Assembly: GCA_043825615.1 (NCBI GenBank)
Contig: JBDRRS010000014.1
Span: forward strand, 31,029 to 95,028
From: a bacterium
GTDB lineage: Bacteria; CG03
Length of the DNA stretch: 64,000 nt
Direction of reading: 5' to 3'
The translations under genes were made by a program, and so were the position numbers. Position 1 is the first letter of the stretch. Each line of letters opens with the position of its first letter. The notes under the pieces were generated by a model that was given only the letters and a program-made list of their open reading frames with translations, was not told the origin of the DNA and did not search any database. Positions 23,845 through 44,428 of this stretch are shown here, in pieces.

Positions 23845-23898
23845 TGGCCGCCACCCCCAACGGGGCAAGCCTCCCGCCGCCCTGATAAGGAAGAAGAT

Positions 23899-25694: not shown

Positions 25695-25747
25695 GTTGAA
25701 AAAAACAGAACTGAAAGTATCGGGATTTCAAAGGCATGTGCGGAAAT

Positions 25748-25775
25748 TTGACAAAAAAATTATTATTTGTAAAAA
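25748..25775 (+). promoter_or_regulatory. Putative sigma70-type promoter (TTGACA-N16/17-TAAAAA) for the large secreted protein gene
   Basis: tttgacaaaaaaattattatttgtaaaaattt lies about 10 nt upstream of the ATG at 25786. The leader is very short and no SD is visible. Confidence 0.3.
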
Positions 25776-25785
25776 TTTAAAACCA

Positions 25786-28743: not shown

Positions 28744-29747
28744 CAAAAAGAGAAATTGAGAAAATAAAAATTAAGAGATTAAGGGGTTCTATTTCCCCCT
28801 TTAGTAAAGGGGGATTAAGGGGGATTTTCGCTTTACTTTTCACGTTTACCGCTTTACCCTTCACGCTTTACGCAGGCGGGGAGGGGACGACCGCCGCCCA
28901 GTTTTTAAAAATTGCGTTAAACCCGCAAATAGAAGGGAAGGGCGGAGCCGGAGTCGCTTCTTTTAACGACGAAATTTTTTACAATCCCGCTTCAATTTCA
29001 AAAGTAAAGAAAGTCAGCAGCCGGGCGGGCTACGTCTCCTGGTTTGAGGACATTTCCAAGGCGAATGTTTTCTGCGCGGTTCCGCTGGGGCGCAGCGACT
29101 GGAAACTGGCAGGCGACCTGTCATATTTTAAAATCGGGGGGTTAAAGTCATATACGAGTGCGACGGATCCGGGGACAGGGTTTGACAGGAACAGCGCCGC
29201 TTTTTCCGTCGGAGTCGCCAGAGGTGGAGATAAGGTTTCTTTCGGTCTCGTGATAAAAGGAATTTCCGAAAAATACGATGCTGAAAGCGGCTCCGCTTTT
29301 GCGGCTGATGCGGGAGTGATTTTTTCTCCGGCGAATAATATTTCTCTCGGATTTTCCGTCCAGAATTTCGGAACGAAACTTGGAATATCGGATGTTGAGA
29401 AAAAACTGCCTGAAAATAAAAAATTGGGAATATGCTTAAGGCCCGCCGGGATTCTTGAGTTGAATTTTGACATTGATATGCCGTCTGATTCCGATAACCG
29501 CAGTCATTTCGGCGCGGAAATTGAATTTGCGAAGAATTACTTTTTGAGAGCCGGCCAGCAGACATTCGGGGAAATCAGCGGGGCGACTTTCGGTTTCGGG
29601 ATGAAATTTCCCGCTTCTTCACGCTCTTCATGGAGGGGTTCTCCAGCTGTCGGCGAAAGCGAAAACATGATATCGGTGGATTACGGTTATCAGAGCAATC
29701 CGGAATTTGACGCCATTCACAGATTTTCCGTCGGCGTTGAATTTTAA
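28740..29747 (+). CDS. Outer-membrane beta-barrel protein, FadL/PorV-like or PorP/SprF-like, translationally coupled to the upstream gene
   Basis: ATGA start/stop overlap. Has the N-terminal motif QFLKIALNPQIEGKGGAGVASFNDEIFYNPA. Alternating amphipathic strands, and the C-terminus ends in F. Confidence 0.5.
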   Translation: MTKREIEKIKIKRLRGSISPFSKGGLRGIFALLFTFTALPFTLYAGGEGTTAAQFLKIALNPQIEGKGGAGVASFNDEIFYNPASISKVKKVSSRAGYVSWFEDISKANVFCAVPLGRSDWKLAGDLSYFKIGGLKSYTSATDPGTGFDRNSAAFSVGVARGGDKVSFGLVIKGISEKYDAESGSAFAADAGVIFSPANNISLGFSVQNFGTKLGISDVEKKLPENKKLGICLRPAGILELNFDIDMPSDSDNRSHFGAEIEFAKNYFLRAGQQTFGEISGATFGFGMKFPASSRSSWRGSPAVGESENMISVDYGYQSNPEFDAIHRFSVGVEF

Positions 29748-29992: not shown

Positions 29993-30400
29993 CTAACCCA
30001 TATCTCTTATGAAGGTTAGCATGCTTTTTTCAAAATCTTCCAACAATTTAAAGTGCGAATTCTTTATCTTACCGTAGATTTCTAAAGCCTGCTGCGCATC
30101 GTAAATATGAGATGTTTTGTTTCTATCTTCCAGCATGTCTATCCATCCCTGGCCGTCTTCAATCATTTTTACCTTGAATGCCTCTTTTATTATCAGGCGG
30201 GGCGTCTCTGATTCAATGCCGGCGTGATTTAATACTGCTTTGGAAAGTTTCCATGCCAGCTCAAACGTGAATTCAAACCTTTGAATTGTTCCGTCAGCCA
30301 CAATGCTGCCCTTAGATAAGTCCTCTCCGAGGGCTTCTTTTAATCTTGCTAAAGCATTTTTGAAATCCGAATAAATTTCATTAATCTTTTCTATGCTCAT
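29993..30400 (-). CDS. hepT: HepT-like toxin (nucleotidyltransferase substrate-binding protein, HI0074 family)
   Basis: 135 aa all-helical protein of the HI0074 type. Overlaps the upstream MNT gene by 20 bp. Confidence 0.65.
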   Translation of the reverse strand: MSIEKINEIYSDFKNALARLKEALGEDLSKGSIVADGTIQRFEFTFELAWKLSKAVLNHAGIESETPRLIIKEAFKVKMIEDGQGWIDMLEDRNKTSHIYDAQQALEIYGKIKNSHFKLLEDFEKSMLTFIRDMG

Positions 30401-30728
30401 AAATCACGCTCCCTTTTGCTAAAATATTTTTTATTAATTTTTCTTTTGTAATTGCGTAAAAATTAATGACATCAAACTTTAAAGGTATTTTCACATCTTC
30501 GTTTAAGGTATGCTTTATTATGTTAAAATCCCTATCCGACCACCCCTTTGCAAAAACGGCTATATCTATATCCGAGGTTCTTTTAAAAATTTTTGTCGTT
30601 CTTGAACCGAATAAAACTATTTTCTCTGCTTTTTTGTATGATAAAATTATTTTTATTATTTGTTCCGCAACAGCATTATCCACGCCGTTAATTACTCTTC
30701 CCGCGTTATTTTGTCTGTTATTTGTCAT
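30381..30728 (-). CDS. mntA: MNT-type minimal nucleotidyltransferase antitoxin (HI0073 family)
   Basis: GS...DIDIAVF nucleotidyltransferase motif (GSRTTKIFKRTSDIDIAVF). 115 aa. Paired with the HepT-like gene. Confidence 0.7.
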   Translation of the reverse strand: MTNNRQNNAGRVINGVDNAVAEQIIKIILSYKKAEKIVLFGSRTTKIFKRTSDIDIAVFAKGWSDRDFNIIKHTLNEDVKIPLKFDVINFYAITKEKLIKNILAKGSVIYEHRKD

Positions 30729-32487
30729 CTGTCATCTTCTTTTGTGCCTGTTTCAGCAGTTTTTTTACGCTTTTGTCTTCGGGGTCAATTTGCAACGCTT
30801 CTTCCGCCAGTTTTATTGCCTCTTCGTATGATTGGCGGTCCAATTTCTGCTGTATCTTTCTTTTCAGTAATCTGATTTCGGCTTCTTTTTCTCTTTTCAA
30901 GCGCTGTTCCTGCGCGCGTATATCCGCCTTTTTCCGGTTATCAATTTCCGTAAGCAGCGATTTGGCTATTTTGTTTTCAGGGGCGATGTTAAATATTTCC
31001 GCAATTGTTTGAGTTGATTTGACATAGTCCTTACTTCGGATATATTTGCGCGCATCTCTTATCAGATTCCTGATTTCCTCGGTTCTTTTCCTCTCCAGTT
31101 CCGCTTCTTTTTTCGCTTGCAGTTCTTCTTCGGACACAGGCGTTTCTTTTTTCATATCAATTTCTTTATTTTTTTCAATATCCCTGAGCAGCGCTCCGGC
31201 CTGCCTGTTTTTCGGGTCGCTCTTGAGGATTTCCGCAATTGTTTCAGCCGCTTTTTCGTAGTCCTTGCTTCTTATAAGTTTGCTGACATCCCGTATTAAG
31301 TTCCTTATTTCAGCGGTTCTTTTTTTCTCCAGTTTTTCCGCTTCTTCCTTTTCTTTTTCCTTTTGCTGTTTTTTCAGTTTTCGGGTTTCCCTGTCCGAAA
31401 GGATTTTATTGATTTCATCATCGCCGATCGTTCTGCCGAACCGGCAGAGAAAAGAAAAATAATGACTCGAAAATCCGCCGCCCATATTCAGAGGGAAGGT
31501 ATATGCGTAATCAATCTGCACTGCTTTGGTGAAGTTGCCGAAAATATTTTGGAAGCAGAAACCTGCGGAAAAGAAGTCGGGGCTTATGCCGCCCCTTAAC
31601 CCGAAATTGCGGAAGAACGGCCAGGTCTCCATAGAGAGGATGTAATTCAGCCGGTCGGAAGTTCTCAGGTAAGAAGCGTTTCTGTAATCGATTTCCAGAT
31701 GGAAAGTCGTATCGTACAGCCGTAGGAATCCTTTTTTATTTAACGCAATTCCGCTTTTGAAAACGAGCGGCACGGCGTCTTTTTCTTTCAGCCCCACGTC
31801 GGCGGGCAGCAGGTTCTGACAGCAGATGCCCACGTTAACTGAATCAAATTTCAGCAGGACTCCTCCGTCAACCGTAAAAGCGTTTTTTGAAGTTCCGCTT
31901 TGAAGGACAGGGTCGGCCGCCGTATATTTATCTTTGTAGGAATATTCATGCCCGAGCAGTTTCAGATTGATTCCCCAGAACGCTTTTTTAAGAGAGAGAA
32001 TGTATGTTGACTCGGAATAAATATCCGAAAGGGAAAGAATATTGCTTCCTGCGCCGAGGATTCCGTATTTGACAGGGATGTTAAAAGCGAGTATATTTTG
32101 TTTCAAAGAATCGTCAAGCGATGAGAGAAGGTTGTTATAACCGGCTCCTGCCTCTATCCTTTTAACGCCGGGCACTCTTGCGGGGTTTGAAAAAATTGAC
32201 AGGGCGTCCCCGTCCATTGCGACGTTGCCGCCGGCGAGGGCCGCCTCCCGCGCGTTTGAAAAGGGCTGGTTGAAAGCCGCATGGGAATGGGATATTAAGA
32301 TAATAAACAGGAAAAAGATTACACTTAATTTCCCGATTCTTGTTACGGGCAGCGGAGCTGCCTGCCGGAGACGCTCACGTGTGCGTCTCGCTCCGGCAAT
32401 CCTGCGGGCATACTGTAAAACTCCTCGGATTGACGGCTCCGTCAGGCACCATCCGCAACCCGGAAGATACTCACATGTTTTTTTCAT
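30718..32487 (-). CDS. Outer-membrane beta-barrel protein (FadL/PorV- or PorP/SprF-like) with a long C-terminal coiled-coil/TPR-like extension containing a tandem duplication
   Basis: N-terminal motif NAREAALAGGNVAMDGDALSIFSNPA. The ATG at 32487 forms an ATGA overlap with the stop of the giant upstream gene. The longest ORF extends to 32592. The C-terminal 250 aa are K/E-rich with two copies of an approximately 55-aa unit (...EIRNLIRD..K.IRSKDY.K...TIAEI...). Confidence 0.5.
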   Translation of the reverse strand: MKKTCEYLPGCGWCLTEPSIRGVLQYARRIAGARRTRERLRQAAPLPVTRIGKLSVIFFLFIILISHSHAAFNQPFSNAREAALAGGNVAMDGDALSIFSNPARVPGVKRIEAGAGYNNLLSSLDDSLKQNILAFNIPVKYGILGAGSNILSLSDIYSESTYILSLKKAFWGINLKLLGHEYSYKDKYTAADPVLQSGTSKNAFTVDGGVLLKFDSVNVGICCQNLLPADVGLKEKDAVPLVFKSGIALNKKGFLRLYDTTFHLEIDYRNASYLRTSDRLNYILSMETWPFFRNFGLRGGISPDFFSAGFCFQNIFGNFTKAVQIDYAYTFPLNMGGGFSSHYFSFLCRFGRTIGDDEINKILSDRETRKLKKQQKEKEKEEAEKLEKKRTAEIRNLIRDVSKLIRSKDYEKAAETIAEILKSDPKNRQAGALLRDIEKNKEIDMKKETPVSEEELQAKKEAELERKRTEEIRNLIRDARKYIRSKDYVKSTQTIAEIFNIAPENKIAKSLLTEIDNRKKADIRAQEQRLKREKEAEIRLLKRKIQQKLDRQSYEEAIKLAEEALQIDPEDKSVKKLLKQAQKKMTDDK

Positions 32488-35400
32488 TTTGCTATGACGA
32501 CAGCGCCGTTCTTTGTGACGCCGTCTTTTTCCACCCGGTATATGTATATGCCGCTTTCGGCGGTTTTTCCCTCTTTGCTTTTGCCGTACCACCGGGGCTC
32601 GTCCGTTATTTCCTTTATTATTTTGCCGGAGAGAGAGTAAATCGTTATTTTGAACGGCTTGTTAAGGCCGACGAATTCAATGTAATCGTTTATCCCGTCG
32701 TTGTTGGGCGTAAAGATTTTTCTTTTCGGAAGATAGTCGGGAAGCCCGAAGGTCTGATTGCTTTTTAACGGGAAGACGCCGAACAGACCCAGATTGTAAA
32801 TGTTTGCGGAAATCGTATCGGAAGAGGTGTTGACTTCTCCGCCGAGGTACCGCCAGTTGAAACCGTCCCAGTAAAAAATTCCGAGGTCTGTTTCATCACT
32901 CCCGCTTTTGTCTTCCTGCCCGTCGCCGTCAAAGTCAAAATAAATCAAAGTTAATTTTACCCCGTCGGAAAAGTTCTCTGATGAGGAAAGCGAGGTTTTT
33001 TTATCGAGAAGCGCCCTGCTTGTTCCCGTCGCAGCGGGGTTTGTCCCTTCTTCAAGTTGAATTCCGTAAACGGCTTTTCCGGAGTTCAGTGCGCTGTTGA
33101 TGTGCGGGTTATCAGTTCCGGCGTGATTTTCACCGGCGGTGGAAATTTTTATTTTGAGCGCCATAGCGTCTTTAACCGCGCCTGCGGGAAAGACGATGTT
33201 TATTCTGGAGTCCCCCAGAATTTCAACGTTCTTTCCGGTGGATGTAATCTGCTCGTACTGGTATGCTCTTATGTCAATTCCGCTCTGTTTTCCGGTTACG
33301 TTTCCGGTACTTACCACGAGCGAAAAGAACCCTTCGTTTCCGAAAATTACTTCGCCTTTGAAGGTGTGCGTGCCCTGGTCAGCGGCGGTAAATTTATAGT
33401 TCCCGGGTAGTTCTGCGGCGGTGTCGGTCGAACTGAAATTTATCCAGTCGGTATAATTTACGGCAATGCCGTCGGGATTTCTGCATTTTACTGTTACGCT
33501 TGCGGGAACCCCCGCTAAAATAGGGGAAGGGACGCCTGATACGTCAAATGATGTCGGAATATATATGCCGTATGGGGCAGCCACCGACGCCTGATTGGAA
33601 ATAGATGAGGTGGAGAAGCAAAATTCAACGCTGTCAATTGATTTTACGGCGAAATAGTAGGTAACGCCCGCCGTCAGGCCGCTTACGGTGAAGTTCTCCG
33701 TTCCGCCCGGCGCGGCGGGAATAATGCTGTTGCCGATTTCCTGCGAGGAGTTCCACCACAGCGTGCCGTCGCCGGTGGAATTGAAAGTGGCGCGGCGGAT
33801 TGAGTACTCTTTCACTGAGTTGCTTAAAGGCAAATCCGCAGGGGCTGTCCAGGAAAGATGCACTCTTCCGTCATAAGAACTGTCCGGCAGGGCGGAAAGG
33901 GAGGTTATCGTTTCGGGCGGCTGTGAATCAAAATAAAACTGGACCTGGAAACTGAAATAATTATCATCCGTGTCATAAGCGGCAGCGGTTAATGTGTAAG
34001 TCGACCCGGAAACCCAGTTTGAGGAATCAAAACCGTAAGACCAGTTCGTCGTTCCCGACGTCAAAACGCTTGTTGATATAACTGTCCAGCCGGAATCGCT
34101 CCAGTAAGTAGTTCCGGCGCTGATGGTCAGAAGGACTTTTTTTATTCCGGTGTAGGCGTCCGTAGAAGTTCCGCTGATAACATCCATGAAACCGTATGAC
34201 TTGTTTTCAAGGGGGAAATTTATGTTTCCCGCGGGGGAACTGATGTCAAGCGTCCTTGCGGCTGCGACGTTGGAATTTGTGGAAACGTTTCCCGCCTCGT
34301 CAATCGTCCAGACGGAAAAGTAATATGTCGCCTGCATGACCAGACCCGTAACGATTTTCAAGCACGGGTCTCCGGGCGAGACGGCGCTGGTCGGGATTTC
34401 AATTTCATAAACGGTTGAAGCCCACGGCTTTGACTGCTCGGTTGAATAATCGATTCTGAAACTGCTGCCGCCGGGTAAAATTTCGGACATTCCGTTGTCC
34501 CCGGGCGCCGACCAGACGAGTGAAATTTTTTCGGGCTCGCCGAGCATAGCTGCCGCGAGGTCGCCGACGGCGAGCGGCGAGACGACGTCGGGGGTTTTCG
34601 TTGATGTGCTGTTTGATATTTCCGACCAGTTGTATGCTTCGTCTCTCGTCCAGAGACGGAAATGATAAGTCGTATCGTCCGCAAGACCCGTGATTATGCG
34701 GGTTTGAAGGTCCCTGGGATTGACGTTGTTTGTCGTTATGGATACCTGACAGGAAGAAGTTGACCAGGAAACTTCGGAGAAAGTCGAGAGCTGGATTTTA
34801 AACTCTGCCGAAAAACCTCCCGTTGTACCGTAATTGATGTAATCGTCGTCTCCCGGCGCGCTCCATGAGAGTTCTATTGACGATGAAGAGCCCTGAACCT
34901 GAAAAGAATTGAGAGAGGTAACATTCCCCGGCGCCACGAGGTCAGGCGGCGCGGCGACCGTCGCGCCGTTGGACAGTTCGCTCCAGTTCGGGACTTCGTC
35001 GGCTGTCCAGATATGGAAATAATAAGTAGCGTTGGGCGTAAGCCCCGTAACAGTGTGCCGGATGACGGTTCCCGGGTTAACGCCGGATGTGGAAATGGTT
35101 ATTGCTGCGGAGGATGTTGACCACACGACTCCCGCCCAGGTTGACTTCTGGATTTTGTATTCGCTCCCCGGGGGAAGAGCGCCTCTTGTCCCGTTATCGC
35201 CGGGCGCCGTCCAGACGAGGTCTATTTCGCCTTCATAATAGCCCCGGGTTCCGGTAAGGGTCGTTATCTTATTCGGCGGGTTCAGGTCAAGCGTTTTTGT
35301 TGAGGTTGTATTTGAGTATTCTTCGGAGATGTTGCCGCTTTCATCGTAAGTCCAGAGGACAAAATAATATGTGGTGTCGTCCGTAAGACCTGTGATTATT

Positions 35401-37796
35401 TTTTCCTGCGCATCTCCCGGAAAAACGGACGAAGTGGATATGGCCACCTGCGCCTCCGATACGTCCGGCGTAAACGCGGAGGAAGTAGAGTGCTGGATTT
35501 TGAAGACCGCCGAAAATCCGGTCGTTGAACCGTAGTTGATATATTCATCGTCTCCGGGGGCGCTCCAGTTGAGTTTTATTTCGGTGGAAGAACCTGAAAC
35601 CTGATATGAGGCGAGCGCGCTCACTGTCCCGGGCGCCGTAACGTCAATCTGAGCCATTGCGGTTGTCCCGTCGGACAGAAGGGAAACGTTCGGGACCTCG
35701 TCTTCCGTCCAGATACGAAAATAATAAGTCGCCCCCGGAATGAGTCCCGTCAGGGCCAATGACTCGGATTTCCCGAAATCCGTATTCTCAACCGGAATCT
35801 GAGTTTGCGCATCAGCCGTTGACCACACAACCGAAAAGTCCGTTGAGCGCTGGATATAGTACTGCCCGCGTATGATTGACTGCATTGTTGCGTTGTCCCC
35901 GGGGGCTGTCCAGGTTAAGTTAATTTTTCCTTCGGTTAAGCCCGTTTCCGCCGATAAGTCCGAAATTTTTGAAGGGCTGACGTTGTCTGCAGCGCTTGCC
36001 GCATCTGCCGCGTTTGCCGGCGGTTCTATTACGCTTTTGTTGCTGACGTCGTCCACTGCCCGGAGAAGAAAGTAATAACTTGTGGAACTCAAAAGATAAA
36101 TGCTTTTTTGCTCCGCCCCGCCAGGGGAAAGAGGACTCCATAACTGCCCGTATGAGGCGGATGCGTTCCACCAGTTGCTTCTGGCTGCACCCGGCGGCGC
36201 CTCTGTCGAGTATTTCAGAGTGTAATAGGCGGCTTTCCCGCCTGCGGTTGCGTCTTCGTGCGGAGCAATCCAGGTAAGTTTTATTTCGTCGGGGTTTTCG
36301 CCGGTCAGCGCGGAAAGGGTTGTTATTGATTCGGGAGCGATGCTGTCGGGGTCGCCTGTCCGCTGAACATAAATATCGCTGACCGTTGTTCTTTCATCCT
36401 GCCAGCAGATTATTGCTCCGCTTAGACCGTCGTCGGTAATCTGTGGAAACTTCTGATATCCTGCCAATGCCGCACCCGAAGAAATCAACGTCCCTGAATA
36501 TTCTTCCCCCCATGGCAGGTTGCCGTCAATATCATATTTTTGGGTGTAAATGTCGCCGTTGTCCTGCCAGCAGATTATTGCCCCGCCTGTTTCTTCCGGA
36601 ATTATTTTTATGTTCTCCTGCGTTCCGGTCCGGTTACAAACCGCTATTCCAAGATTGTTTCCCGGATTCCATACAGGCAAACCGTCGGAGCCGAACCTTT
36701 CGCAATAAATATCACCGATAGGGAGGTCTTCGTTTTCGAAGTCCCTCCACGCAATAACCGCCGAGCCGGCTGCTTCGCCTTTTACGATAACGGGCTCCAT
36801 CTGATGAAGACCGGCATTGCATACGATTGAGCCGCCCGCTTCCCAGAGGTCGCTTCCGTCGGTTCCGTCAAGACGCTGGGCGTAAATGTCGTAAAGGTCG
36901 TTTGAATCCCTTTCCTGCCAGCAGAGCAGGGCTCCCCCCGCTCCGTCTTCCGTCATTTCAACGTCGGGAGTGTAGTCGGGGGGTTTATCCCCGTTTGTAT
37001 TGGAGAACACCTGTTTCTCGCCCCAGACGGTCACGCCCGTTGAGTTAATTCTTTTGGAATAAATATCCCAATACCCGTCAGCGTCTCTGTTGTCGTGCCA
37101 GCAAATTATCGCTCCATTATTGTTGTCGCTTATGATGACAGGATAATTCTGGAAATTCAAATCGCTGCAGACGGGAATGCCGTTATCCGTCCATTCAGGA
37201 GTTCCTCCTCCCGTAATTTTCTGGGCGTAGATGTCCTCGCTTCCATTTCTCTTATCGACCCAGCAGATTATTGCGCCCCCCGCGCCGTCTTTGACAATTC
37301 CGATTCTGTATTTATCGAATGTGGCGTCGGTTGTAATGTTCGTAAACGTAGAAATTGCGATTCCGTTAGCTGTCCACTGAGGGTTTCCCGAAGAGTTAAG
37401 ACGCTGGCTGTAAATGCCGTAATATGTTCCGTCTCTTTTGTCCCACCAGGCAATTATTGCCCCTCCCGCATCATCGGAGACAATTGCGGGTTTTAACTGG
37501 TCGTTGGATGCGTTTGAGACGGCAACGCCGCCCAAAGACCACTTTACGGTTCCTTCCGTATTTATTGCCTGCGCGTAAATATCCCAATACCCGTCAGCGT
37601 CTCTGTTGTCGTGCCAGCAAATTATCGCCCCGAGCGTGCCGTCGGAAATAATTTGAGGATAGTCCTGACGGTATGCCTCGGTTGACAGAGCGACGCCTCC
37701 CGCCGTCCAGATATTCTGACCGGCGGCAAAACAGAGAGCAGATGTTAGATACAGGATGCAGGATAAAAAAACAGAAAGACAGAAGGTCTTTTTCAT
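32484..37796 (-). CDS. Giant secreted repeat protein (1770 aa): eight propeller-like WxDxR...DIYAQ repeats, seven FN3-like modules, and a C-terminal CHU_C / T9SS type-B-like sorting domain
   Basis: Signal peptide MKKTFCLSVFLSCILYLTSALCFA. Repeats GGAIICWHDNRDADGYWDIYAQ x8. FN3-like modules each with (L/W)TAPGD(N/D). The C-terminus has FTPNNDGINDYIEF...GIYIYRV, like the gliding-motility C-terminal domain. Confidence 0.65.
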   Translation of the reverse strand: MKKTFCLSVFLSCILYLTSALCFAAGQNIWTAGGVALSTEAYRQDYPQIISDGTLGAIICWHDNRDADGYWDIYAQAINTEGTVKWSLGGVAVSNASNDQLKPAIVSDDAGGAIIAWWDKRDGTYYGIYSQRLNSSGNPQWTANGIAISTFTNITTDATFDKYRIGIVKDGAGGAIICWVDKRNGSEDIYAQKITGGGTPEWTDNGIPVCSDLNFQNYPVIISDNNNGAIICWHDNRDADGYWDIYSKRINSTGVTVWGEKQVFSNTNGDKPPDYTPDVEMTEDGAGGALLCWQERDSNDLYDIYAQRLDGTDGSDLWEAGGSIVCNAGLHQMEPVIVKGEAAGSAVIAWRDFENEDLPIGDIYCERFGSDGLPVWNPGNNLGIAVCNRTGTQENIKIIPEETGGAIICWQDNGDIYTQKYDIDGNLPWGEEYSGTLISSGAALAGYQKFPQITDDGLSGAIICWQDERTTVSDIYVQRTGDPDSIAPESITTLSALTGENPDEIKLTWIAPHEDATAGGKAAYYTLKYSTEAPPGAARSNWWNASASYGQLWSPLSPGGAEQKSIYLLSSTSYYFLLRAVDDVSNKSVIEPPANAADAASAADNVSPSKISDLSAETGLTEGKINLTWTAPGDNATMQSIIRGQYYIQRSTDFSVVWSTADAQTQIPVENTDFGKSESLALTGLIPGATYYFRIWTEDEVPNVSLLSDGTTAMAQIDVTAPGTVSALASYQVSGSSTEIKLNWSAPGDDEYINYGSTTGFSAVFKIQHSTSSAFTPDVSEAQVAISTSSVFPGDAQEKIITGLTDDTTYYFVLWTYDESGNISEEYSNTTSTKTLDLNPPNKITTLTGTRGYYEGEIDLVWTAPGDNGTRGALPPGSEYKIQKSTWAGVVWSTSSAAITISTSGVNPGTVIRHTVTGLTPNATYYFHIWTADEVPNWSELSNGATVAAPPDLVAPGNVTSLNSFQVQGSSSSIELSWSAPGDDDYINYGTTGGFSAEFKIQLSTFSEVSWSTSSCQVSITTNNVNPRDLQTRIITGLADDTTYHFRLWTRDEAYNWSEISNSTSTKTPDVVSPLAVGDLAAAMLGEPEKISLVWSAPGDNGMSEILPGGSSFRIDYSTEQSKPWASTVYEIEIPTSAVSPGDPCLKIVTGLVMQATYYFSVWTIDEAGNVSTNSNVAAARTLDISSPAGNINFPLENKSYGFMDVISGTSTDAYTGIKKVLLTISAGTTYWSDSGWTVISTSVLTSGTTNWSYGFDSSNWVSGSTYTLTAAAYDTDDNYFSFQVQFYFDSQPPETITSLSALPDSSYDGRVHLSWTAPADLPLSNSVKEYSIRRATFNSTGDGTLWWNSSQEIGNSIIPAAPGGTENFTVSGLTAGVTYYFAVKSIDSVEFCFSTSSISNQASVAAPYGIYIPTSFDVSGVPSPILAGVPASVTVKCRNPDGIAVNYTDWINFSSTDTAAELPGNYKFTAADQGTHTFKGEVIFGNEGFFSLVVSTGNVTGKQSGIDIRAYQYEQITSTGKNVEILGDSRINIVFPAGAVKDAMALKIKISTAGENHAGTDNPHINSALNSGKAVYGIQLEEGTNPAATGTSRALLDKKTSLSSSENFSDGVKLTLIYFDFDGDGQEDKSGSDETDLGIFYWDGFNWRYLGGEVNTSSDTISANIYNLGLFGVFPLKSNQTFGLPDYLPKRKIFTPNNDGINDYIEFVGLNKPFKITIYSLSGKIIKEITDEPRWYGKSKEGKTAESGIYIYRVEKDGVTKNGAVVIAK

Positions 37797-37867
37797 CGGA
37801 AGTATTCAGTCAAACACGTCATCTATTTCATGGTTTTTCAATACTCAGTGCTCAGTGCTCAGTACTC

Positions 37868-39076
37868 TTACCATGAAGGTCCAAGTTCTTTCCAGGAAAC
37901 CTGTTTTATATTAAGTTCGGTTGTTTCAACCTGCAGGGCTATAGCTTCATTATAATAAATGGATGTACCTCCCATACCACCTGCAACCCCTATAGCCTGA
38001 ATGCACCCATTTATAACAGGCGACCCATTTGCCGATATAGTCCCCCCCACATAAATAAACCCTTCAACAGCAATTTTTGCAGGTGTAAAATGGTATTGTG
38101 GGTAGTCAGGATTTGCCGGGCTTGCAAAATTATTAGTCCAATACTGCTTTGCGCTCTGTAACGGCGCAACAACTATGTCCTTTTGATATTCATCTTCCGC
38201 ATTATCAGGGATGTCTGCATAGTATGTACCCTTGCCGCTGCCGTTTAAGTACAGATTTCCTTTTACAATAAGAGTCCCCACAAGATAAGAATTTTTCAAT
38301 TCGCAATTACCTTCAATATAATACACTGTTGGTTCATCTCCGTGGGTATCTTCTATGGCATTCGGCGTTTTAATATTATGGTCACCAGCCCAGTAGGTGC
38401 CGGTGGTTGTGGCTTTCGCTAGATAATAAGGAAAGTTTATTCCCGGAGGCGACTTAACACTGCTATCATGCGCCCAATACTCAATATTATCAGTATCGGG
38501 AGGAGTACGTCCGATGATGTCTCCTCCTGCATACTTCATGGGGAAGCAGTCCTGGGGATCTGCAGTTATATTTCCGATTGACTTTATCGGGCCCCAGTGC
38601 ACCTCTATATTACCTCCCATGTTTATAGTCGGCGCTGATATAGCCGCTTCAACCGCCGCGTGTTTAACTATCAGTTCAATTACTCTCACTTCGTTCGTTG
38701 AGGAGTCCCTTCCTCTTCCTATGATTTTTCTTTCGGTTTCCTCGGATGTTATTGAAATTACAATCTTATATGTGCCCCCTGCAATGTCTTCATAGACAAT
38801 ATCATTATTGTAACCGGCCACGGTTCCTTCGGCAAAGGAATCCCATACATCCTTTGATTCCCGCAATTTCCACAGGCCCCTGTCGGTGGCTGCCTCCGCA
38901 AGATGAAAAGCGGTTGTCGAACGCTTGTGTTTTGTCGTCATTTTTGTCTCATGACGCAGTAAATTAATAAGATTCGGCAGATACACCAGAAGGACGAGAA
39001 TAATAATCATTGCGAACACTAACGTCTGACCTTTCCGGGAATTGAACATTTCTTTTAAATTACTACGTTTATTCAT
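37868..39076 (-). CDS. PilX-N-domain minor pilin-like protein
   Basis: N-terminus RKGQTLVFAMIIILVLLV resembles the PilX N-terminal hydrophobic segment. 402 aa. It follows two prepilin-type genes on the same strand. Confidence 0.5.
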   Translation of the reverse strand: MNKRSNLKEMFNSRKGQTLVFAMIIILVLLVYLPNLINLLRHETKMTTKHKRSTTAFHLAEAATDRGLWKLRESKDVWDSFAEGTVAGYNNDIVYEDIAGGTYKIVISITSEETERKIIGRGRDSSTNEVRVIELIVKHAAVEAAISAPTINMGGNIEVHWGPIKSIGNITADPQDCFPMKYAGGDIIGRTPPDTDNIEYWAHDSSVKSPPGINFPYYLAKATTTGTYWAGDHNIKTPNAIEDTHGDEPTVYYIEGNCELKNSYLVGTLIVKGNLYLNGSGKGTYYADIPDNAEDEYQKDIVVAPLQSAKQYWTNNFASPANPDYPQYHFTPAKIAVEGFIYVGGTISANGSPVINGCIQAIGVAGGMGGTSIYYNEAIALQVETTELNIKQVSWKELGPSW

Positions 39077-39082
39077 CTATTG

Positions 39083-39595
39083 CTAATTCATTATTCTTAC
39101 AATCTGAACGGATAATTTTGAAGTTCTTGTTTTTTCAGCGTAGGTTTTTTGTTCCAGGCAAAGCCCGATGTTTACCGATGCATCATCACCGCTCTCAACG
39201 GTCGCGAAAGAAATCACCCTGACGTTTTCACCGAGTTCCTTTCCCGCTCCGCCATCTTTAGACCAGTAGAGTTTTAAGCCGCTCTGGTAGTATGAATAAG
39301 CGCTCCCGTTTATGTGAGTGAAATCTATTTTACTGCAGGGAGGGTCGTCGGCTGAATTTCTGCTGATTGTTATTGTTCCCGCCTGCGCCTGCCGCAGGGG
39401 TCTGTTTATCAAATAAAGCATTCGTCTTGCGCCTTCCTGAACGTTTATCCTCGCTGAGTTCTGCCGCCAGGTCCTGAAACCCTGAAAGAACATTTGCCCC
39501 AGAACCAGAGAGATAATTCCGATTATTGCCGTTGTGATGAGCGTTTCAATCAGAGTTAAACCTTTACATTTTTTCATTTGCTTGCTCATGGCCAT
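39083..39595 (-). CDS. Type IV pilin-like protein (prepilin-type N-terminal cleavage/methylation domain)
   Basis: N-terminus KGLTLIETLITTAIIGIISLV has the class III signal motif G-(F/L)TLIE. 170 aa. Confidence 0.65.
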   Translation of the reverse strand: MAMSKQMKKCKGLTLIETLITTAIIGIISLVLGQMFFQGFRTWRQNSARINVQEGARRMLYLINRPLRQAQAGTITISRNSADDPPCSKIDFTHINGSAYSYYQSGLKLYWSKDGGAGKELGENVRVISFATVESGDDASVNIGLCLEQKTYAEKTRTSKLSVQIVRIMN

Positions 39596-41463
39596 GTAAA
39601 ATTAACCTGAGCGGTTGTGCCGACGGTCAGGTCTGCTGTTCCAGGGTCGTCTCTTGTTGTTGTCGTTCCGTCCCACGAGTCGTTTATTTCCGTGTACCAT
39701 GCGTAAACGTTATATGTATATCCCACCCGCGCCTTTATTTCGTATTCCCCTTCAGTGTGACTTATTCCGCCGTAGTTACCCGCTGCTCCGACGTTCATAT
39801 CAGGAGGAGGGTCGCTGATTGTGCCTGTTGAAGCAATTATAAGAACCCCTGTTGTAATCGGTTCGCCGGTGTCCGTAACATTTCCGCTGATATAACCCCA
39901 TGCGCGGGTTATGGTAAAATCACAACCGGAGGCGTTTCCTCCTTTGACAACTACGGTGTTCACGCTTGCAGGGATTGAAACATCTTCCGCGTCCTTAATC
40001 GGCGCTACTGTGTAAGGATTCCGGGTAAATAACCCCATTTGCGTCGGGAGCTGCGTGATTTCATAATAGCCGTCCGCATCGGACAATCCAACGCCTCTTT
40101 CTATGAGGGCCTTGTCAACCGCTCTGACGACCATTCCGGGAAGTTTGTCAACGCCGCCTGCGGTGTAAACGGTTCCCGAAATTTTGCCGGCAGGGTAAAT
40201 TCTCATCTCGTCGGCCTGAACGTTCTGCCCTGCGGAAACGTCAACGTTTGTTGTATCTGTTGTATAACTCGGGTTATCGCCGCCCGGGTTTGCCGTGACG
40301 GTGATATCGGTGCCCGCATCAACGTTTTCAATTGTATAAGACCCTGTGGTTTTTGTAAAACTTTCGCTCCCCCCGCCGCTGACCCTAATGTCCTTGTGGT
40401 CGCCGCTGTCGTCCTTGAAAACCAATCCGGAAATACTCCCTGATGTGGCATCGGTATCCAGCAGGATGTCGTAATATACCCGCTCGTCTACCACTTCAAC
40501 AACAACCGTTGTGCTTCCGGAAAGATCAAGAGGGGTTCCTGTCGTTGCAAATATTGTCCAGGTTCCCGTTGACACCTCAAGAAGTTCAAAATACCCATTT
40601 ACATCTGAATCATCGGAAACTGATGTCTCGTCATTGCAGGTAATTGTTGCGAAGGGGACGGTTGCGCCGTCGGTTAAGCCCCCTGTTGATATTATTACAT
40701 AACCCTTTATTTTTCCTTTTCCCAGTGCTGTCAGGTCAAGTTTAAAACCACCCGCAATGTCAATATCAATATTTACCGTATCCCCTTCGGTTACTGCATA
40801 TGGATTGTTAGGGGCTGCTTGCTTTGAGAAATAACCTTTCTTTGAGGCATTCAGGTTCCAGTCGCCGGTTGAGACCTTTATTTCATAGTCGCCGTTCACA
40901 TCGGTTGAAGCCGACCAATTCGGATTTTCAACAACATATACCGTCGCCGCCATAATTGCGCCTCCGCCCGAAGCGTTCCGTACTCTCCCCGTTATTGTTC
41001 CGCTGAGCGGCGCCCTGTCGGGGTTCTGCCGCAGGTTATAAATGGTGACGGTTTTGGCATTTTCGTTTTCCGTCCAGGTTACTTCAACTTTTATTCTTTT
41101 CAAACCCTCATCGGGGTCGGCGGCGTCTATAACTTCAATGTCTCCGCCGGGTGTTTCTCTTACTTTTCTCACGGTTACATAGCGGGTAAAATCCTTTCTT
41201 TTAACGGTGTAAGTTACCGGAGGATAATAAACGGTGTCATAGTCGGGGATTGTTGTGGTCGTTACGTAGAGACGGGGGTAGGTGAGTTTTTTCAGCGTTT
41301 CCACTTTCTCGTGGGCGATGTTTACCGCGATTGTCTTGTTCTGCGTGCGGATTAAGCCGGTGCCTATTCCCATAAATCCTTTTGTCAGCGCCAGGAAAGC
41401 GATGGACACAATCAGTACGGTGATGACGACTTCAATCAGCGAAAAACCTTTATTGGGTTTCAT
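39586..41463 (-). CDS. Large minor-pilin-like protein (625 aa) with a prepilin N-terminus and carboxypeptidase-regulatory-like beta-sandwich repeats
   Basis: N-terminus KGFSLIEVVITVLIVSIAF. Internal GxxRNASGGG...TDVNGDYEI-type Cna/CarboxypepD_reg-like segments. SD aggaag lies 5 nt before the ATG. Confidence 0.6.
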   Translation of the reverse strand: MKPNKGFSLIEVVITVLIVSIAFLALTKGFMGIGTGLIRTQNKTIAVNIAHEKVETLKKLTYPRLYVTTTTIPDYDTVYYPPVTYTVKRKDFTRYVTVRKVRETPGGDIEVIDAADPDEGLKRIKVEVTWTENENAKTVTIYNLRQNPDRAPLSGTITGRVRNASGGGAIMAATVYVVENPNWSASTDVNGDYEIKVSTGDWNLNASKKGYFSKQAAPNNPYAVTEGDTVNIDIDIAGGFKLDLTALGKGKIKGYVIISTGGLTDGATVPFATITCNDETSVSDDSDVNGYFELLEVSTGTWTIFATTGTPLDLSGSTTVVVEVVDERVYYDILLDTDATSGSISGLVFKDDSGDHKDIRVSGGGSESFTKTTGSYTIENVDAGTDITVTANPGGDNPSYTTDTTNVDVSAGQNVQADEMRIYPAGKISGTVYTAGGVDKLPGMVVRAVDKALIERGVGLSDADGYYEITQLPTQMGLFTRNPYTVAPIKDAEDVSIPASVNTVVVKGGNASGCDFTITRAWGYISGNVTDTGEPITTGVLIIASTGTISDPPPDMNVGAAGNYGGISHTEGEYEIKARVGYTYNVYAWYTEINDSWDGTTTTRDDPGTADLTVGTTAQVNFTWP

Positions 41464-41785
41464 TTTTACTTCCTGCTATAATTATACAACGAAAAGCCCT
41501 AAATGAAAAGCCGCAAAAGTTATAGCGCCCGTTGTTCCCACTTTGACAAAGGGGTTTTGACAAGGGTCGGGGTCAGGGCAATGGGGGAGTTTACATAATC
41601 AAGATTATCGGGCAGATTCTTTGATTCTTATTAAGAAATTATAAAGCGCAGTAAATTTGTCAGTTTCCTATTATTTCATTTAGACCGTCAATAACTTGGG
41701 CTAATTCCTCTGATTGCACTCTACCCATTCTCTTACCAATTCGTTCCACGGAAAGTATTCGAATTAGCCCAACGAATTTCTCCCC

Positions 41786-42028
41786 TCAGTATTTTGGCCA
41801 TTTCTTTATTTCCTCGGATAGACCTTCTTCAGCCATTGCCTTCTCGAAGGATGGATCGAGTTTAGCGCACTCTCTGGATAGACGGTTGCGTTCCATTCGT
41901 TCCAGCTTTTCCCGAACAGCTTCCTGAATTGCCCGGCTCCGGTTAATAAAAATATGTTCCTTGACGAGTCTATCCAAGCATTCTACCGTACCCCGCTCCA
42001 TACTGATTGCAATTTTAGCGCTATTCAT
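41786..42028 (-). CDS. Ribbon-helix-helix (CopG/ParD-like) DNA-binding protein, orphan
   Basis: 80 aa. The N-terminal beta-strand-helix-helix pattern (KIAISMERGTVECLDRLVKE...SRAIQEAVREKL) fits RHH. No intact toxin partner. It lies upstream of the pilin-like operon. Confidence 0.55.
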   Translation of the reverse strand: MNSAKIAISMERGTVECLDRLVKEHIFINRSRAIQEAVREKLERMERNRLSRECAKLDPSFEKAMAEEGLSEEIKKWPKY

Positions 42029-42157
42029 AAGACCCCCTCTTTCCCCGGTACTACCATTATCATACCGCGAATTTTATCAAGTGTCACGGCGAGCGACGGG
42101 TGGTAGCTGGGTATAATCGCTAAAATTCCAGAGAAACCCCTGCGCTGAATTCCGGAA

Positions 42158-44083
42158 TTAAAATTTAAGCGAAATTCCCCCTGTAAAACTCCTCAAAGAG
42201 GCAGGGTAATAAGTTCCGGAGTATGCGCTTTCGCAGTATTGTTTGTTCCCGACGTTTTTTACCGCGAGAAAGATTTCTTCGTTGTTCAGCGTTTTTGTAA
42301 TTTTCATATCGACAACCCCGTAACCCGCAAGTTTGTTTTTCTGAACATAATCGCTTCCGAAAAATCTGTCGCTTATTCCGTTAGCGCTCATATTTATTTT
42401 TAAATTCCCGGCCGGTCTGATTCCCAACTTGATACCGCATTTGTGCTTCGGGACAAGAGGTATATCTTTTCCGTCATAAACGCCCGATTCGAATTCCCCG
42501 CGGGTGTATGAATAAGACAATGAGGCGTCCAGCAATTCATTAAAAGCGCGCCCGAAATTCAATTCCGCGCCGTTTCTTATCGTGGGGGAAGGGTAATTTT
42601 CGTTTAACCAGGAGATATTGTTGTAATAAATTTCATCCTTGATTTTATCGTGAAATACGGAAACATAAGCGTTAAAATCACTTCCCTGGTATTTTAATCC
42701 CGCCTCTTTTTCGGTGTTTTTCTGGGGTAGAAGCGCCGGATTATAGGCGCCCCAGGATACATATTCGTCGCTGCGGGGCATTCGGAATGCTCTGGAAAAC
42801 CGCAGGTAAAAGTTCAAACGGGAAGTTAAAAGAAATCCGGCGCCCATATTCAGCGCCCGCAGGTTTTCGGCATTAGTATAAGATTTTCCTGCCGATTCAT
42901 CATCGATGGATTGTTTAAAATTCTCCCTTCTCCCGCCGATATCAATCGAAAACGGGTGAAAGAATAAACCGATTTTAAGAAAGGCGGCGTTGTTTTTTCT
43001 TTTCACATTCTGATCGTCATTTGCAACTGTGGGGGCTAAATTCTGCTCAATGGGCCTGACGTTATAGAATGTATCGTAAATTTCTCCGCCGCCGAGAGCC
43101 GTAAGCGTTTTGTCCGAATACTGAAATTTTTGTTCTCCCGAAAGAGAGCGGGTGTAATGATTTTTATAACTCGGCCAGGAATCCATAAAGCTCAAAGCGT
43201 CCCGCATCGTGAAGGAAACATCCGTAATTCCTTCGATATTTCCAATGCCGTATTTGGTGCTGAAAATGGAATGTAAATCTCTGGTTTTGCCGTAATCCTC
43301 GGGAGTGTAGGTTTTTTTTAAGTCCTTTTTTTCCCAGTCCGCCTGCAGAATGTAACCGGGCAAACCGTATCTGTCCTGGTGCATTTGCATAAACAAATTC
43401 CAGGGAAGAGTGTTTTGCCGGTTTTCAATCTGTCCCGACATATTAAGCGATTCTACCTGATTGTTGTCGCGGAAACCCTGATTGAATCTGTGAGAAAAGT
43501 TCATGAAATACGCCAAATCCCCATCCTGTCCGTCGATGCCGAACAAAGAATCGGCGCCTTTGAAACTTGAATATGAAAAACCGAGCCGTTTTTCTTTTTT
43601 GGAAGGTGTTTTTGTAATAATATTTATTACCCCGCCCGTTGCGCCGTCTCCGTAAAGGGAACTCATCCCCCCGCGTATTATTTCCACTCTTTCCACGCCG
43701 TTGAGAGAAATCTGACTCAAATCAACATTTGATATATCCGCGTTGTTGAATTTTCTTCCGTTGATTAAGATTACGGAATTCATCGCGGCGGCTTCCCCGT
43801 AACCTCTTATATCAACGCTTGATTTTACCTTGTTGCCGGTCACATCCTGAATAAAAATTCCTGCTTCGTATTTTAAAAGCTCGGCAATGTTGTCTGCTGA
43901 GGAGTCCTTAATTTCATCGCTGTCTATAACCGTTATGCTGTTCGGAGATTTAAAAGATTCTATCTCCCATCCTTTTTGGGGAGTAACGACAATCGTTCCG
44001 AGGTCGCCGAGATAATCGCCGGCGAAGCCGGCGCCCGAAAGAAACAGAAACAGACCCGAAAAAAGTAAAAAAGTTTTCTTCAT
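42158..44083 (-). CDS. btuB: TonB-dependent outer-membrane receptor (BtuB-like cobalamin receptor)
   Basis: Signal peptide MKKTFLLFSGLFLFLSGAGFA, a TonB-box/plug region, a 22-strand barrel length, and the C-terminus ends in F. A cobalamin-riboswitch-like leader lies immediately upstream. The longest ORF extends to 44182 across the leader. Confidence 0.75.
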   Translation of the reverse strand: MKKTFLLFSGLFLFLSGAGFAGDYLGDLGTIVVTPQKGWEIESFKSPNSITVIDSDEIKDSSADNIAELLKYEAGIFIQDVTGNKVKSSVDIRGYGEAAAMNSVILINGRKFNNADISNVDLSQISLNGVERVEIIRGGMSSLYGDGATGGVINIITKTPSKKEKRLGFSYSSFKGADSLFGIDGQDGDLAYFMNFSHRFNQGFRDNNQVESLNMSGQIENRQNTLPWNLFMQMHQDRYGLPGYILQADWEKKDLKKTYTPEDYGKTRDLHSIFSTKYGIGNIEGITDVSFTMRDALSFMDSWPSYKNHYTRSLSGEQKFQYSDKTLTALGGGEIYDTFYNVRPIEQNLAPTVANDDQNVKRKNNAAFLKIGLFFHPFSIDIGGRRENFKQSIDDESAGKSYTNAENLRALNMGAGFLLTSRLNFYLRFSRAFRMPRSDEYVSWGAYNPALLPQKNTEKEAGLKYQGSDFNAYVSVFHDKIKDEIYYNNISWLNENYPSPTIRNGAELNFGRAFNELLDASLSYSYTRGEFESGVYDGKDIPLVPKHKCGIKLGIRPAGNLKINMSANGISDRFFGSDYVQKNKLAGYGVVDMKITKTLNNEEIFLAVKNVGNKQYCESAYSGTYYPASLRSFTGGISLKF

Positions 44084-44094
44084 CTTTTCCTCCT

Positions 44095-44215
44095 GCGAAG
44101 ATACTTCCCAGGATAAGCAGTGGACCAGGCTCGTCCGCACGAGGCGGAAATTACTGTTGCGCGGCAGCGCCCCGAATCTCACGGAGACTTCCCCTACCTA
44201 TCCGGCTAAACAGAA
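44095..44215 (-). promoter_or_regulatory. Cobalamin riboswitch-like leader upstream of btuB
   Basis: The - strand reads ...GGGGAAGTCTCCGTGAGATTCGGGGCGCTGCCGCGCAACAGTAA...GAGCCTGGTCCACTGC..., matching the conserved GGGAAG / GGTGA-AATCC / GCTGCCCCCGCAAC-GTAA / B12-box AGCC-GG---CTGC blocks. Confidence 0.65.
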
Positions 44216-44247
44216 CTAGTCAATTCTACTTGCTTTATTAAAATCAC

Positions 44248-44427: not shown

Positions 44428-44428
44428 T

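Follow-up and report, generated by a model that had tools for sequence, protein, structure and literature searches.

A type-B-like cargo gene and PorP-like barrel gene behind a minor-pilin cassette in a clade of Elusimicrobiota

The window, the whole 64-kb stretch of DNA that was analysed, contains a block of five co-directional genes (g1 to g5) with successive gaps of -10, 6, 71 and -4 bp. The ORF coordinates, the gene lengths and the 71-bp gap all agree with the original prediction, which had described a five-gene block on the - strand. The features of the block are as follows.

41481-41509, - strand, candidate operon promoter, TTTTCA-17-TATAAT, 18 bp upstream of the g1 start
39586-41463, - strand, g1, ORF of 625 aa
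39083-39595, - strand, g2, ORF of 170 aa, 10-bp overlap with g1
37868-39076, - strand, g3, ORF of 402 aa, 6-bp gap from g2
37797-37867, - strand, g3-g4 spacer of 71 bp, in which CACTGAG is read three times
32484-37796, - strand, g4, secreted adhesin-like giant protein of 1770 aa
30718-32487, - strand, g5, 589 aa counted from the ATGA start, putative outer-membrane partner of g4

The promoter-like site upstream of g1 was located by a consensus scan for sigma-70-type promoters (10/12 matches) and lies inside a 694-bp gap following a TonB-receptor gene, which is the last gene of an upstream B12-uptake operon. The promoter and terminator between the pilin genes and the giant gene that the original prediction had named as contrary evidence were not found in the g3-g4 spacer by the same consensus scan. 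Spacing and scan together suggest that g4 and g5 are probably co-transcribed with g1-g3, in which case production of the giant adhesin would go together with that of the pilus tip proteins. The stop codon of g4 and the ATG of g5 share the sequence ATGA (4-bp overlap), an arrangement conserved in the related loci L002, L082, L085 and L171.

The pilin-like nature proposed for g1-g3 was upheld by the prepilin signals of g1 and g2 and by the GspK/XcpX/ComZ-like model of g3. g1 encodes a modular prepilin-type protein in which a class III signal (KG/FSLIE) and a pilin N-domain precede beta-sandwich domains of the CarboxypepD_reg type. Its profile scores exceeded the cut-offs for N_methyl (PF07963; 27.3 bits, cut-off 21.2), TIGR02532 (23.1, cut-off 16.3) and CarboxypepD_reg (68.3 bits, cut-off 32.3), while the Cna domain that had also been proposed for g1 was not found by profile search. 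g2 is a 170-aa minor pilin, as predicted, with the signal KG/LTLIE and scores above cut-off for both N_methyl (28.3 bits) and TIGR02532 (21.9). g3, previously called PilX-N-like, had zero matches in Pfam and NCBIfam, and its predicted PilX/GspK-like nature rests on a conserved AFHLAEAxxDRG motif, the processing site G/QTLVF, which lacks Glu+5 as in GspK and PilX, and the modelled fold, which resembles GspK, XcpX and ComZ, the tip pilin of the Thermus thermophilus competence pilus (PDB 6qvi). With an N-terminal TM helix, a pilin domain and a beta-solenoid, it is best classed as a GspK/PilX/ComZ-class tip pilin.

Three consecutive prepilin-type genes, the last without Glu+5 and with a GspK/XcpX-like fold, in a genome with pilus assembly genes recall GspI-GspJ-GspK of type II secretion systems (T2SS) and PilV-PilW-PilX of type IVa pili. 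Unlike these systems, the block lacks both a FimU/GspH-like fourth gene and a homologue of PilY1/PilC, and g1 is a 625-aa modular pilin. Gene order and weak N-terminal-helix matches are the sole grounds for placing g1 and g2, putatively, in the I/V and J/W classes. The Verru_Chthon cassette (TIGR02596-02600) is another pilin-like cassette and has a large fourth protein. g1 and g2 weakly matched its proteins B and C, respectively, and membership was rejected with scores far below the cut-offs (16.5 vs 51.4 and 27.2 vs 256.5).

The giant protein g4 is composed of four recognizable parts.

37725-37796, - strand, Sec signal peptide of g4 (aa 1-24), read by eye from the translation
36357-37724, - strand, propeller region of g4 (aa 25-480), eight repeats of ~57 aa with the pattern GGAIIxWxDxR...DIYAQR
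33627-36344, - strand, FN3 stretch of g4 (aa 485-1390), containing seven FN3 domains and, at roughly aa 1200-1290, an Ig-like insert
32487-32720, - strand, type-B-like C-terminal sorting domain of g4 (aa 1693-1770), FTPNNDGINDYIEF...GIYIYRV

The N-terminal Sec signal, MKKTFCLSVFLSCILYLTSALCFA/AGQ, was taken directly from the translation. The repeats that follow are spaced by 53-61 aa and may form an 8-bladed beta-propeller; no Pfam model matched them and only a weak match to beta_prop_Msarc was obtained. The FN3 stretch carries a W[ST]AP[GA]D motif at aa 509, 629, 744, 862, 978, 1095 and 1316, and Pfam matches in g4 comprise fn3 (81 bits), Pur_ac_phosph_N and NDNF. The C-terminus had been likened to a type B sorting domain of type IX secretion systems (T9SS), a likeness partly supported by PF13585 CHU_C at aa 1693-1758 (32.7 bits vs cut-off 27), whereas TIGR04131 (30.0 vs 35) and the type A model TIGR04183 (20.3 vs 23) remained below their cut-offs. 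Orthologues of g4, with total lengths of 1395-1889 aa, lie downstream of g3 in L002, L003, L082, L083/L084, L085, L171 and L172. Relatives of the propeller with 34-45% identity occur in at least 450 metagenome loci, where they mostly carry type-A CTD tails.

The downstream gene g5 encodes a barrel with an additional C-terminal region, and the copy in the window differs from its orthologues at the N-terminus.

32329-32475 (approximate), - strand, in-frame insertion of ~42 aa in g5, after the start codon and before the signal-peptide core
31426-32280, - strand, 14-stranded FadL/PorV-fold beta-barrel of g5 (aa 70-354)
30721-31365, - strand, tail of g5 (aa 375-589), three TPR-like/coiled-coil repeats of ~75 aa

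The original prediction of a PorP/SprF-like partner found partial support at the level of the barrel, which passes PF11751 (PorP_SprF) when searched alone (24.3 vs cut-off 22.3) and has PorV as its best structural match. Full-length g5 scored below all cut-offs (PorV_fam 34 vs 90; PF11751 20.6 vs 22.3; TIGR03519 23.3 vs 90.55), and its L083 orthologue reached 27.0 with PF11751. Among 72 members of the g5 family, 69 matched PorV_fam, 48 TIGR03519 and 31 PF11751. The g5 tail matched Fis1_TPR_C (46.9 bits, cut-off 25.3) and TPR_19 (34.2), and the even strand number of the barrel would place it in the periplasm. This TPR-like tail is confined to the closest relatives; tails in the family as a whole include TPR (11/72), OmpA (6/72) and LysM (5/72) types. 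The ~42-aa insertion, which contains a hairpin at 32365-32396, is unique to the window copy, being missing from L002, L082, L083 and L085, and has no repeat copy elsewhere in the window. Identity of the g4 CTD and of the g5 barrel to their orthologues falls together across loci, and this parallel divergence provides indirect support for putative binding between the g4 tail and g5.

Further genes in the window bear on both halves of the block.

12327-17041, + strand, type IV pilus assembly genes pilM, pilN, pilO, a 151-aa ORF and the secretin gene pilQ
23899-24984, PilT-like ATPase (T2SSE, 127 bits)
25696-29747, + strand, second cargo and barrel pair, pilin-free, convergent with the block, 4-bp overlap within the pair
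25696-28743, + strand, second cargo, 1015-aa Ig-domain protein with a weak type-A-like tail
28740-29747, + strand, second barrel, 335 aa, PorV/PorQ family (PorV_fam 103.5 bits vs cut-off 90)

The pilus assembly genes were identified with PilM_2 (208 bits), PilN (33.5), PilO (85.3) and Secretin (156, plus AMIN), and the 151-aa ORF had no profile match. Neither a major pilin nor a prepilin peptidase was seen within the 64-kb window. Likewise, a scan of ORFs of 150 aa or longer, together covering most of the window, revealed no T9SS core component (SprA/Sov, PorK/L/M/N, PorT or PorU). The pair on the + strand, also present in L082, resembles PorV/PorQ with PorU/PorZ in combining a tail-bearing protein with a PorV/PorQ barrel. 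Unlike PorU, the second cargo matches only the C-terminal tail region of that protein (37 bits; Por_Secre_tail weak), and no sortase domain was detected in it. Independent pilin-free pairs of cargo and barrel were found in the window, L043, L035 and L169.

The g1-g2-g3 cassette occurs in ~60 Elusimicrobiota species with homologues in the same order, usually with housekeeping genes downstream (tmk as the immediate next gene in 13 loci, UvrB and others at further loci). The g4-g5 pair lies between g3 and tmk in only one Elusimicrobiota clade, and the order g3, giant, barrel and then tmk-holB in L083, L085 and L171 marks the insertion of the pair. In the g3 tree, the giant-linked loci group together to the exclusion of all others (99/100 bootstraps), which indicates a single origin of the linkage. 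Co-inheritance, proposed as a check in the original prediction, was confirmed, with the five genes in order in 8/8 clade members with downstream sequence and in one divergent locus. The order is kept in two surroundings, with either the B12 operon or fabA upstream. In L166, a g3-like gene end is again followed by a giant, here with a different N-domain (FG-GAP) and a CHU_C tail. Outside the clade, relatives of the g4 propeller and of g5 are mostly not found beside pilins; the g5 barrel has 728 representatives among its relatives, and of the mere two informative contexts beyond the clade, one includes a g3-like gene end.

Genes for type B CTD proteins with a porP/sprF-like gene directly downstream are a known pairing (PMC12618676), and a type B cargo physically binds a PorP-like protein (PMC9143113). 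The g4-g5 pair is comparable to SprB-SprF and Fjoh_3952-Fjoh_3951 of Flavobacterium johnsoniae and to PG1035-PorP of Porphyromonas gingivalis. As in T9SS type B substrates, g4 is a large repeat adhesin, predicted to be Sec-exported, with a CHU_C-type C-terminal domain, and g5 is directly downstream, translationally coupled and of PorV/PorP/FadL fold, with CTD and barrel diverging together. Unlike described PorP/SprF partners, g5 has a TPR tail and takes a position intermediate between the models for PorV/PorQ and for PorP/SprF. The statement in the original prediction that no described system has this architecture therefore holds for the combination and not for its halves, a minor-pilin tip cassette and a type B cargo with a porP/sprF-like gene (PMC9143113, PMC12618676).

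We therefore lean, with modest confidence, towards an explanation by two modules of known kinds, a type-B-like cargo and PorP-like anchor pair appended to a minor-pilin operon. The first module (g1-g3) would be a conserved Elusimicrobiota minor-pilin cassette, consisting of a large modular pilin, a small pilin and a beta-solenoid tip pilin, which by analogy with GspIJK and PilVWX may prime and cap a type IV pilus of the pilMNOQ/pilT machinery encoded 15-25 kb away. The second module (g4-g5) would be a cargo with its cognate barrel, as known from T9SS type B substrates. Homology and fold suggest that g4 is exported by Sec and displays a propeller on an FN3 stalk, that the 14-stranded PorV/PorP-fold barrel of g5 binds the g4 sorting domain and keeps g4 on the cell surface, and that the TPR tail tethers the barrel in the periplasm. 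This second module would have entered the g3-tmk interval in a single event, at the base of one clade, and been retained as the 3' part of the pilin operon, g4 being neither a pilus subunit nor a PilY1 equivalent. Elusimicrobiota would then have, behind a pilus-tip cassette, a pairing known otherwise from type IX secretion in Bacteroidota.

Several observations count against this two-module explanation. The CHU_C/TIGR04131 and PorP/PorV scores are marginal, and the unusual N-terminal insertion in the window copy of g5 might impair export. The pair differs from described T9SS type B pairs in its position at the end of a pilin operon, without a T9SS core gene in the 64-kb window, and in its host phylum: published work assigns T9SS to Bacteroidota and the FCB group alone (PMC7463736, PMC12421860), and our literature search found no report of T9SS in Elusimicrobia. 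Furthermore, the linkage is complete in the clade despite g3 identities down to 38% and recurs in L166; such persistence exceeds what neutral synteny might predict and leaves room for real functional coupling.

Alternatively, the two modules could be mere neighbours, the cargo and barrel pair having landed by chance with its own promoter and without regulatory or functional ties, so that conservation reflects inherited synteny. We regard this as unlikely. The single origin in one clade and the common occurrence of both modules apart are in line with it, as are spacers before the giant gene of up to 166-309 bp in some relatives and the blindness of the promoter scan to non-sigma-70 promoters. 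However, the block is intact while both flanks vary, the spacers are just 18-71 bp in several loci, no terminator-like site was found in the window copy, and L166 repeats the junction with a different giant.

The functional chimera favoured by the original prediction, in which g4 is a tip adhesin docked on the g1-g2-g3 cap in place of PilY1/PilC, with g5 aiding passage or anchorage, appears improbable. PilY1 contains a propeller, as g4 may, and is likewise encoded after minor pilins; g4 starts 71 bp past the PilX-class gene g3. The complete linkage, the recurrence in L166 and the length of g1 in exactly the giant-bearing clade (615-631 aa vs a median of 862 aa elsewhere, ~230 aa shorter) also fit a chimera. 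The proposed PilY1/PilC role of g4 was nevertheless not supported: the PilC/PilY1 family (PF05567) had no match in g4 at E <= 0.01, the propeller-like repeats are N-terminal, unlike the C-terminal propeller of PilY1, and g4 has its own Sec signal, sorting domain and coupled barrel. Moreover, the propeller relatives are ordinary CTD-tailed surface proteins, none of which adjoins g1-g3 in the 80 loci examined of the at least 450. A chimera as the reason for the linkage is further contradicted by the ~60 related cassettes that work without an adjacent partner of the g4 kind and by the mostly pilin-free relatives of g4 and g5, and a single ancestral insertion accounts for the linkage at least as well.

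Least probable is a T2SS-like export route, a proposal prompted by the SprA/Sov translocon not being known from the phylum, in which the GspIJK-like g1-g3 cap and the PilQ secretin would push g4 across the outer membrane for g5 to capture and anchor its CTD: it would account for the lasting linkage of cargo and pilin genes and agrees with the likeness of g3 to GspK and XcpX, the secretin and assembly genes in the window, the absence of T9SS core genes there and the lack of a literature link, but the window is only 64 kb of a genome that may carry T9SS core genes in its remaining part, neither the second pair in the window nor the pairs of L043 and L035 belong to pilin operons, most cassettes in the phylum have no adjoining cargo, and the AMIN-type secretin and PilT-like ATPase fit a type IVa pilus capable of retraction better than a T2SS.

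The five co-directional minus-strand open reading frames of the original prediction were confirmed at their coordinates. They comprise a three-gene minor-pilin cassette (g1-g3), a giant secreted protein (g4) and its outer-membrane barrel (g5), and lie downstream of a B12-uptake operon.

Features of the five-gene block and its 5' flank.
47098-47213, minus strand: cobalamin riboswitch heading the B12-uptake operon
42158-47213, minus strand: B12-uptake operon (periplasmic binding protein, FecCD permease, ABC ATPase, TonB-dependent receptor)
39586-41463, minus strand: g1, 625 aa
39083-39595, minus strand: g2, 170 aa, 10-bp overlap with g1
37868-39076, minus strand: g3, 402 aa, 6-bp gap after g2
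32484-37796, minus strand: g4, 1770 aa, 71-bp spacer after g3
30718-32487, minus strand: g5, 589 aa, ATG overlapping the g4 stop (ATGA)

Because the upstream B12-uptake operon ends at 42158, the block starts at g1, and a consensus scan placed a promoter-like site 5' of this gene (41481-41509). The same kind of scan returned no promoter-like or terminator-like match in the g3-g4 spacer sequence. This spacer also contains three tandem copies of CACTGAG (37845-37866, minus strand).

Both g1 and g2 carry canonical prepilin signals (KG/FSLIE and KG/LTLIE) scoring above the N_methyl and TIGR02532 cut-offs, and g1 additionally contains a CarboxypepD_reg domain (68 bits). g3 matched no family in the profile search; it is a member of a small family that shares an invariant AFHLAEA motif and a G/QTLVF site lacking Glu+5, its homologues are from Elusimicrobiota MAGs, and its AF2 model (pLDDT 77.9) resembles several solved structures. 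GspIJK and PilVWX are minor-pilin tip triads, and g1-g3 match such a triad, with fold support for g3 only. A type IV pilus system is present, as the window encodes pilM, pilN, pilO, pilQ and a PilT-like ATPase; neither a major pilin nor a prepilin peptidase was seen within the window.

Type IV pilus genes of the window.
12327-17041, plus strand: pilM, pilN, pilO, an unassigned 151-aa ORF and the pilQ secretin with AMIN domain (profile matches); a TPR protein follows pilQ, extending the pil gene stretch to 12327-17623
23899-24984, plus strand: PilT-like ATPase, directly 3' of ftsZ (stretch 22774-24984)

The giant protein g4 consists of a Sec signal peptide, eight ~57-aa repeats, which we infer to form a propeller, seven FN3 domains and a C-terminal domain that scores above the Pfam CHU_C cut-off (32.7 vs 27) but below that of TIGR04131 (30 vs 35), both of which are models of type-B sorting domains (CTDs). 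Its position behind the minor pilins had been read as that normally occupied by PilY1/PilC-type tip adhesins; however, g4 was ruled out as PilY1/PilC by the absence of a family match and the wrong domain order, and a PilY1-like tip adhesin is very unlikely. The propeller N-domain (36357-37724, minus strand; repeat GGAIIxWxDxR...DIYAQR) matched no Pfam model, and a metagenome scan with its alignment as query retrieved relatives at 34-45% identity from at least 450 loci, in proteins of 470-1834 aa. In the 80 loci examined (L086-L165), these relatives mostly carry a type-A tail (PNPFNP...GVYFYRL...KMVLLK), and none adjoins g1-g3. The g4 N-domain is an unnamed, widespread surface-protein domain. 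Compared with the giant of the related locus L082, the propeller of g4 is 38% identical and the rest of the protein 74-87% (L082 11289-12788 vs window 36297-37796), which suggests that the N-terminal domain was replaced inside an otherwise conserved giant; such independent propeller divergence is typical of mosaic adhesins.

An exhaustive search of 1.84 billion representatives recovered 728 relatives of the g5 barrel, of which 69 of 72 sampled matched the PorV/PorQ family model and 48 the PorP/SprF model. This search was used after a homologue search had returned one match each with full-length g5 and with the barrel alone; the single full-length match was probably caused by the low-complexity TPR tail dominating the word index. 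A metagenome scan with the barrel alignment gave zero matches. The g5 tail is formed by three TPR-like repeats and, as relatives elsewhere have TPR, OmpA or LysM tails, this suggests a periplasmic tether. The window copy of g5 alone contains an in-frame insertion of ~42 aa between start codon and signal-peptide core (32329-32475, minus strand), which is absent from four orthologues, occurs once within the window and includes a hairpin (32365-32396; inverted repeat CCGGAGCGAGACGC...GCGTCTCCGG). Since the stretch from the ATGA start to the hydrophobic core has no in-frame ATG, GTG or TTG, a start nearer the signal peptide was ruled out and the long N-region is regarded as an insertion, not a miscalled start.

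Type B substrates of the T9SS include large adhesins with a porP/sprF-like partner gene directly downstream; its product binds the adhesin, which requires it for secretion and placement (PMC9143113, PMC12618676). g4 and g5 conform to this arrangement in their layout, type-B-like tail and barrel fold. According to the literature, the T9SS is limited to Bacteroidota and the FCB group (PMC7463736, PMC12421860). No T9SS core gene was identified among the window ORFs scanned, and our literature search found no paper linking Elusimicrobia to the T9SS, nor anything relevant on Elusimicrobia and pilins. The window encodes a further cargo-barrel pair:

25696-29747, plus strand: second cargo-barrel pair, convergent with the block, 4-bp overlap, no pilin genes

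Its cargo is a 1015-aa Ig-domain protein with a C-terminus weakly matching the PorU/type-A tail region, and its 335-aa barrel belongs to the PorV/PorQ family (103.5 vs NCBIfam cut-off 90). This pair is also present in L082, and similar cargo-barrel pairs were found in loci L043 and L035. In GCA_000404505.1, a relative of the g5 barrel lies behind a small CHU_C protein, and its neighbourhood contains no pilins.

Scanning species-representative genomes yielded 72 Elusimicrobiota-type loci, about 60 of which contain g1-, g2- and g3-like genes adjacent in that order. Housekeeping genes follow g3 in these cassettes, with tmk directly next in 13 loci and holB, PSP1 and metG beyond it in some. Other g3 neighbours are UvrB or a conserved 275-aa protein of unassigned function (directly next in 13 further loci), and class II RNR and a glycosyltransferase are also common. 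By reading representative sequences, tmk, holB, metG, class II RNR and the glycosyltransferase were identified; tmk, holB, PSP1 and metG were confirmed by Pfam. Proteins of ~680 aa behind g3, considered as alternative adhesins, were taken as housekeeping, their C-termini being read as UvrB by eye. A giant and barrel behind g3 occur only in the closest relatives of the window:

Linked loci and identity of their g3 to the window copy.
L002: 89%
L082: 58%
L083 and L084: 50%
L172: 48%, giant split into two ORFs
L085: 46%
L171: 41%
L003: 38%, contig ending before the barrel

In a g3 neighbour-joining tree, the eight linked loci grouped together to the exclusion of all others (99 of 100 bootstraps), g1 measures 615-631 aa in this clade versus a median of 862 aa elsewhere, and CTD and barrel identity fall together across it. 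In the more divergent locus L166, a g3-like gene, represented by its last 72 residues (HMM E = 9e-9), directly adjoins a 1497-aa FG-GAP/FN3/CHU_C protein, behind which lies a barrel ~40% identical to g5. L083, L085 and L171 share the gene order fabA, g1, g2, g3, giant, barrel, tmk, holB, which places the insertion of the pair between g3 and tmk. The window, L082 and L172 have the B12 operon, not fabA, upstream of the five genes; thus, the block was kept whole while its surroundings changed.

From this comparison of gene order and sequence, we lean slightly towards a single event in which a cargo and anchor pair would have been appended to the 3' end of a minor-pilin operon and then retained, probably as part of the same transcript. 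The alternative that pair and pilins are unrelated, separately transcribed neighbours would be compatible with the pilin-free pairs and the exclusive linked clade; against it speaks the lack of a terminator-like match in the spacer, and we consider it unlikely. Export of g4 via pilus/T2SS-like machinery with g5 as anchor would draw on the likeness of g1-g3 to GspIJK and on the nearby pil genes; we consider it highly improbable. As a long shot, the clade might be without SprA/Sov and type IV filament machinery might move T9SS-style cargo, the GspIJK-like g1-g3 cap and PilQ secretin acting as piston and gate for g4 while g5 captures the CTD and anchors it. If true, filament-driven g4 export would be a hybrid in which type II-like secretion is coupled to surface attachment of the T9SS kind, and would point to CTD-barrel 'shuttle' pairs being older than the T9SS translocon or independent of it.

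The original interpretation, which suggested a chimeric adhesion system, pilus-associated or T9SS-exported, is partly supported: the junction of pilins with a T9SS-style pair stands, the PilY1/PilC role does not. Each half is of a known kind; new are the conserved junction and the occurrence of T9SS-style cargo-barrel pairs in Elusimicrobiota, outside the Bacteroidota/FCB phyla of which the T9SS and its cargo-shuttle pairs have been described as a trait. One such genome contains two pairs: a type-B-like one whose barrel has the PorP/PorV fold, and a type-A-like one whose barrel is of the PorV/PorQ family. The former has been kept at the 3' end of a conserved minor-pilin operon for a long evolutionary time. 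The block therefore offers a checkable case of whether CTD-barrel pairs work outside known T9SS phyla, and of whether pilus tip proteins and giant adhesins share regulation or a physical link in an uncultured phylum. Should a normal T9SS core be encoded in these genomes, what remains is a taxonomic extension and an unusual operon junction.

Several smaller features accompany the block. The split giant of L172 (11200-15517) consists of a 727-aa ORF (propeller part) and a 477-aa ORF (CHU_C part) separated by a 700-bp gap, which could reflect a frameshift, assembly error or decay. A gene for a 120-123-aa four-helix bundle (23S_rRNA_IVP/bAvd family) directly follows the giant in L083 (15565-15936), L084 (8033-8404) and L003 (6409-6771), with no reverse transcriptase seen near it in these loci; the barrel comes next in L083, and the contigs of L084 and L003 end at this gene. 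Between TonB receptor and g1 (41680-42030, minus strand), the window contains an 80-aa ORF with weak ribbon-helix-helix matches, followed by apparent fragments of a MazF/PemK-type toxin gene, judged by eye. Downstream of g5 (29993-30728, minus strand), a toxin-antitoxin-like pair comprises a nucleotidyltransferase (Polbeta/NTP_transf_2) and an NTase_sub_bind/HEPN-type protein; as its first gene and the g5 stop share 11 bp, the pair may lie on the g5 transcript.
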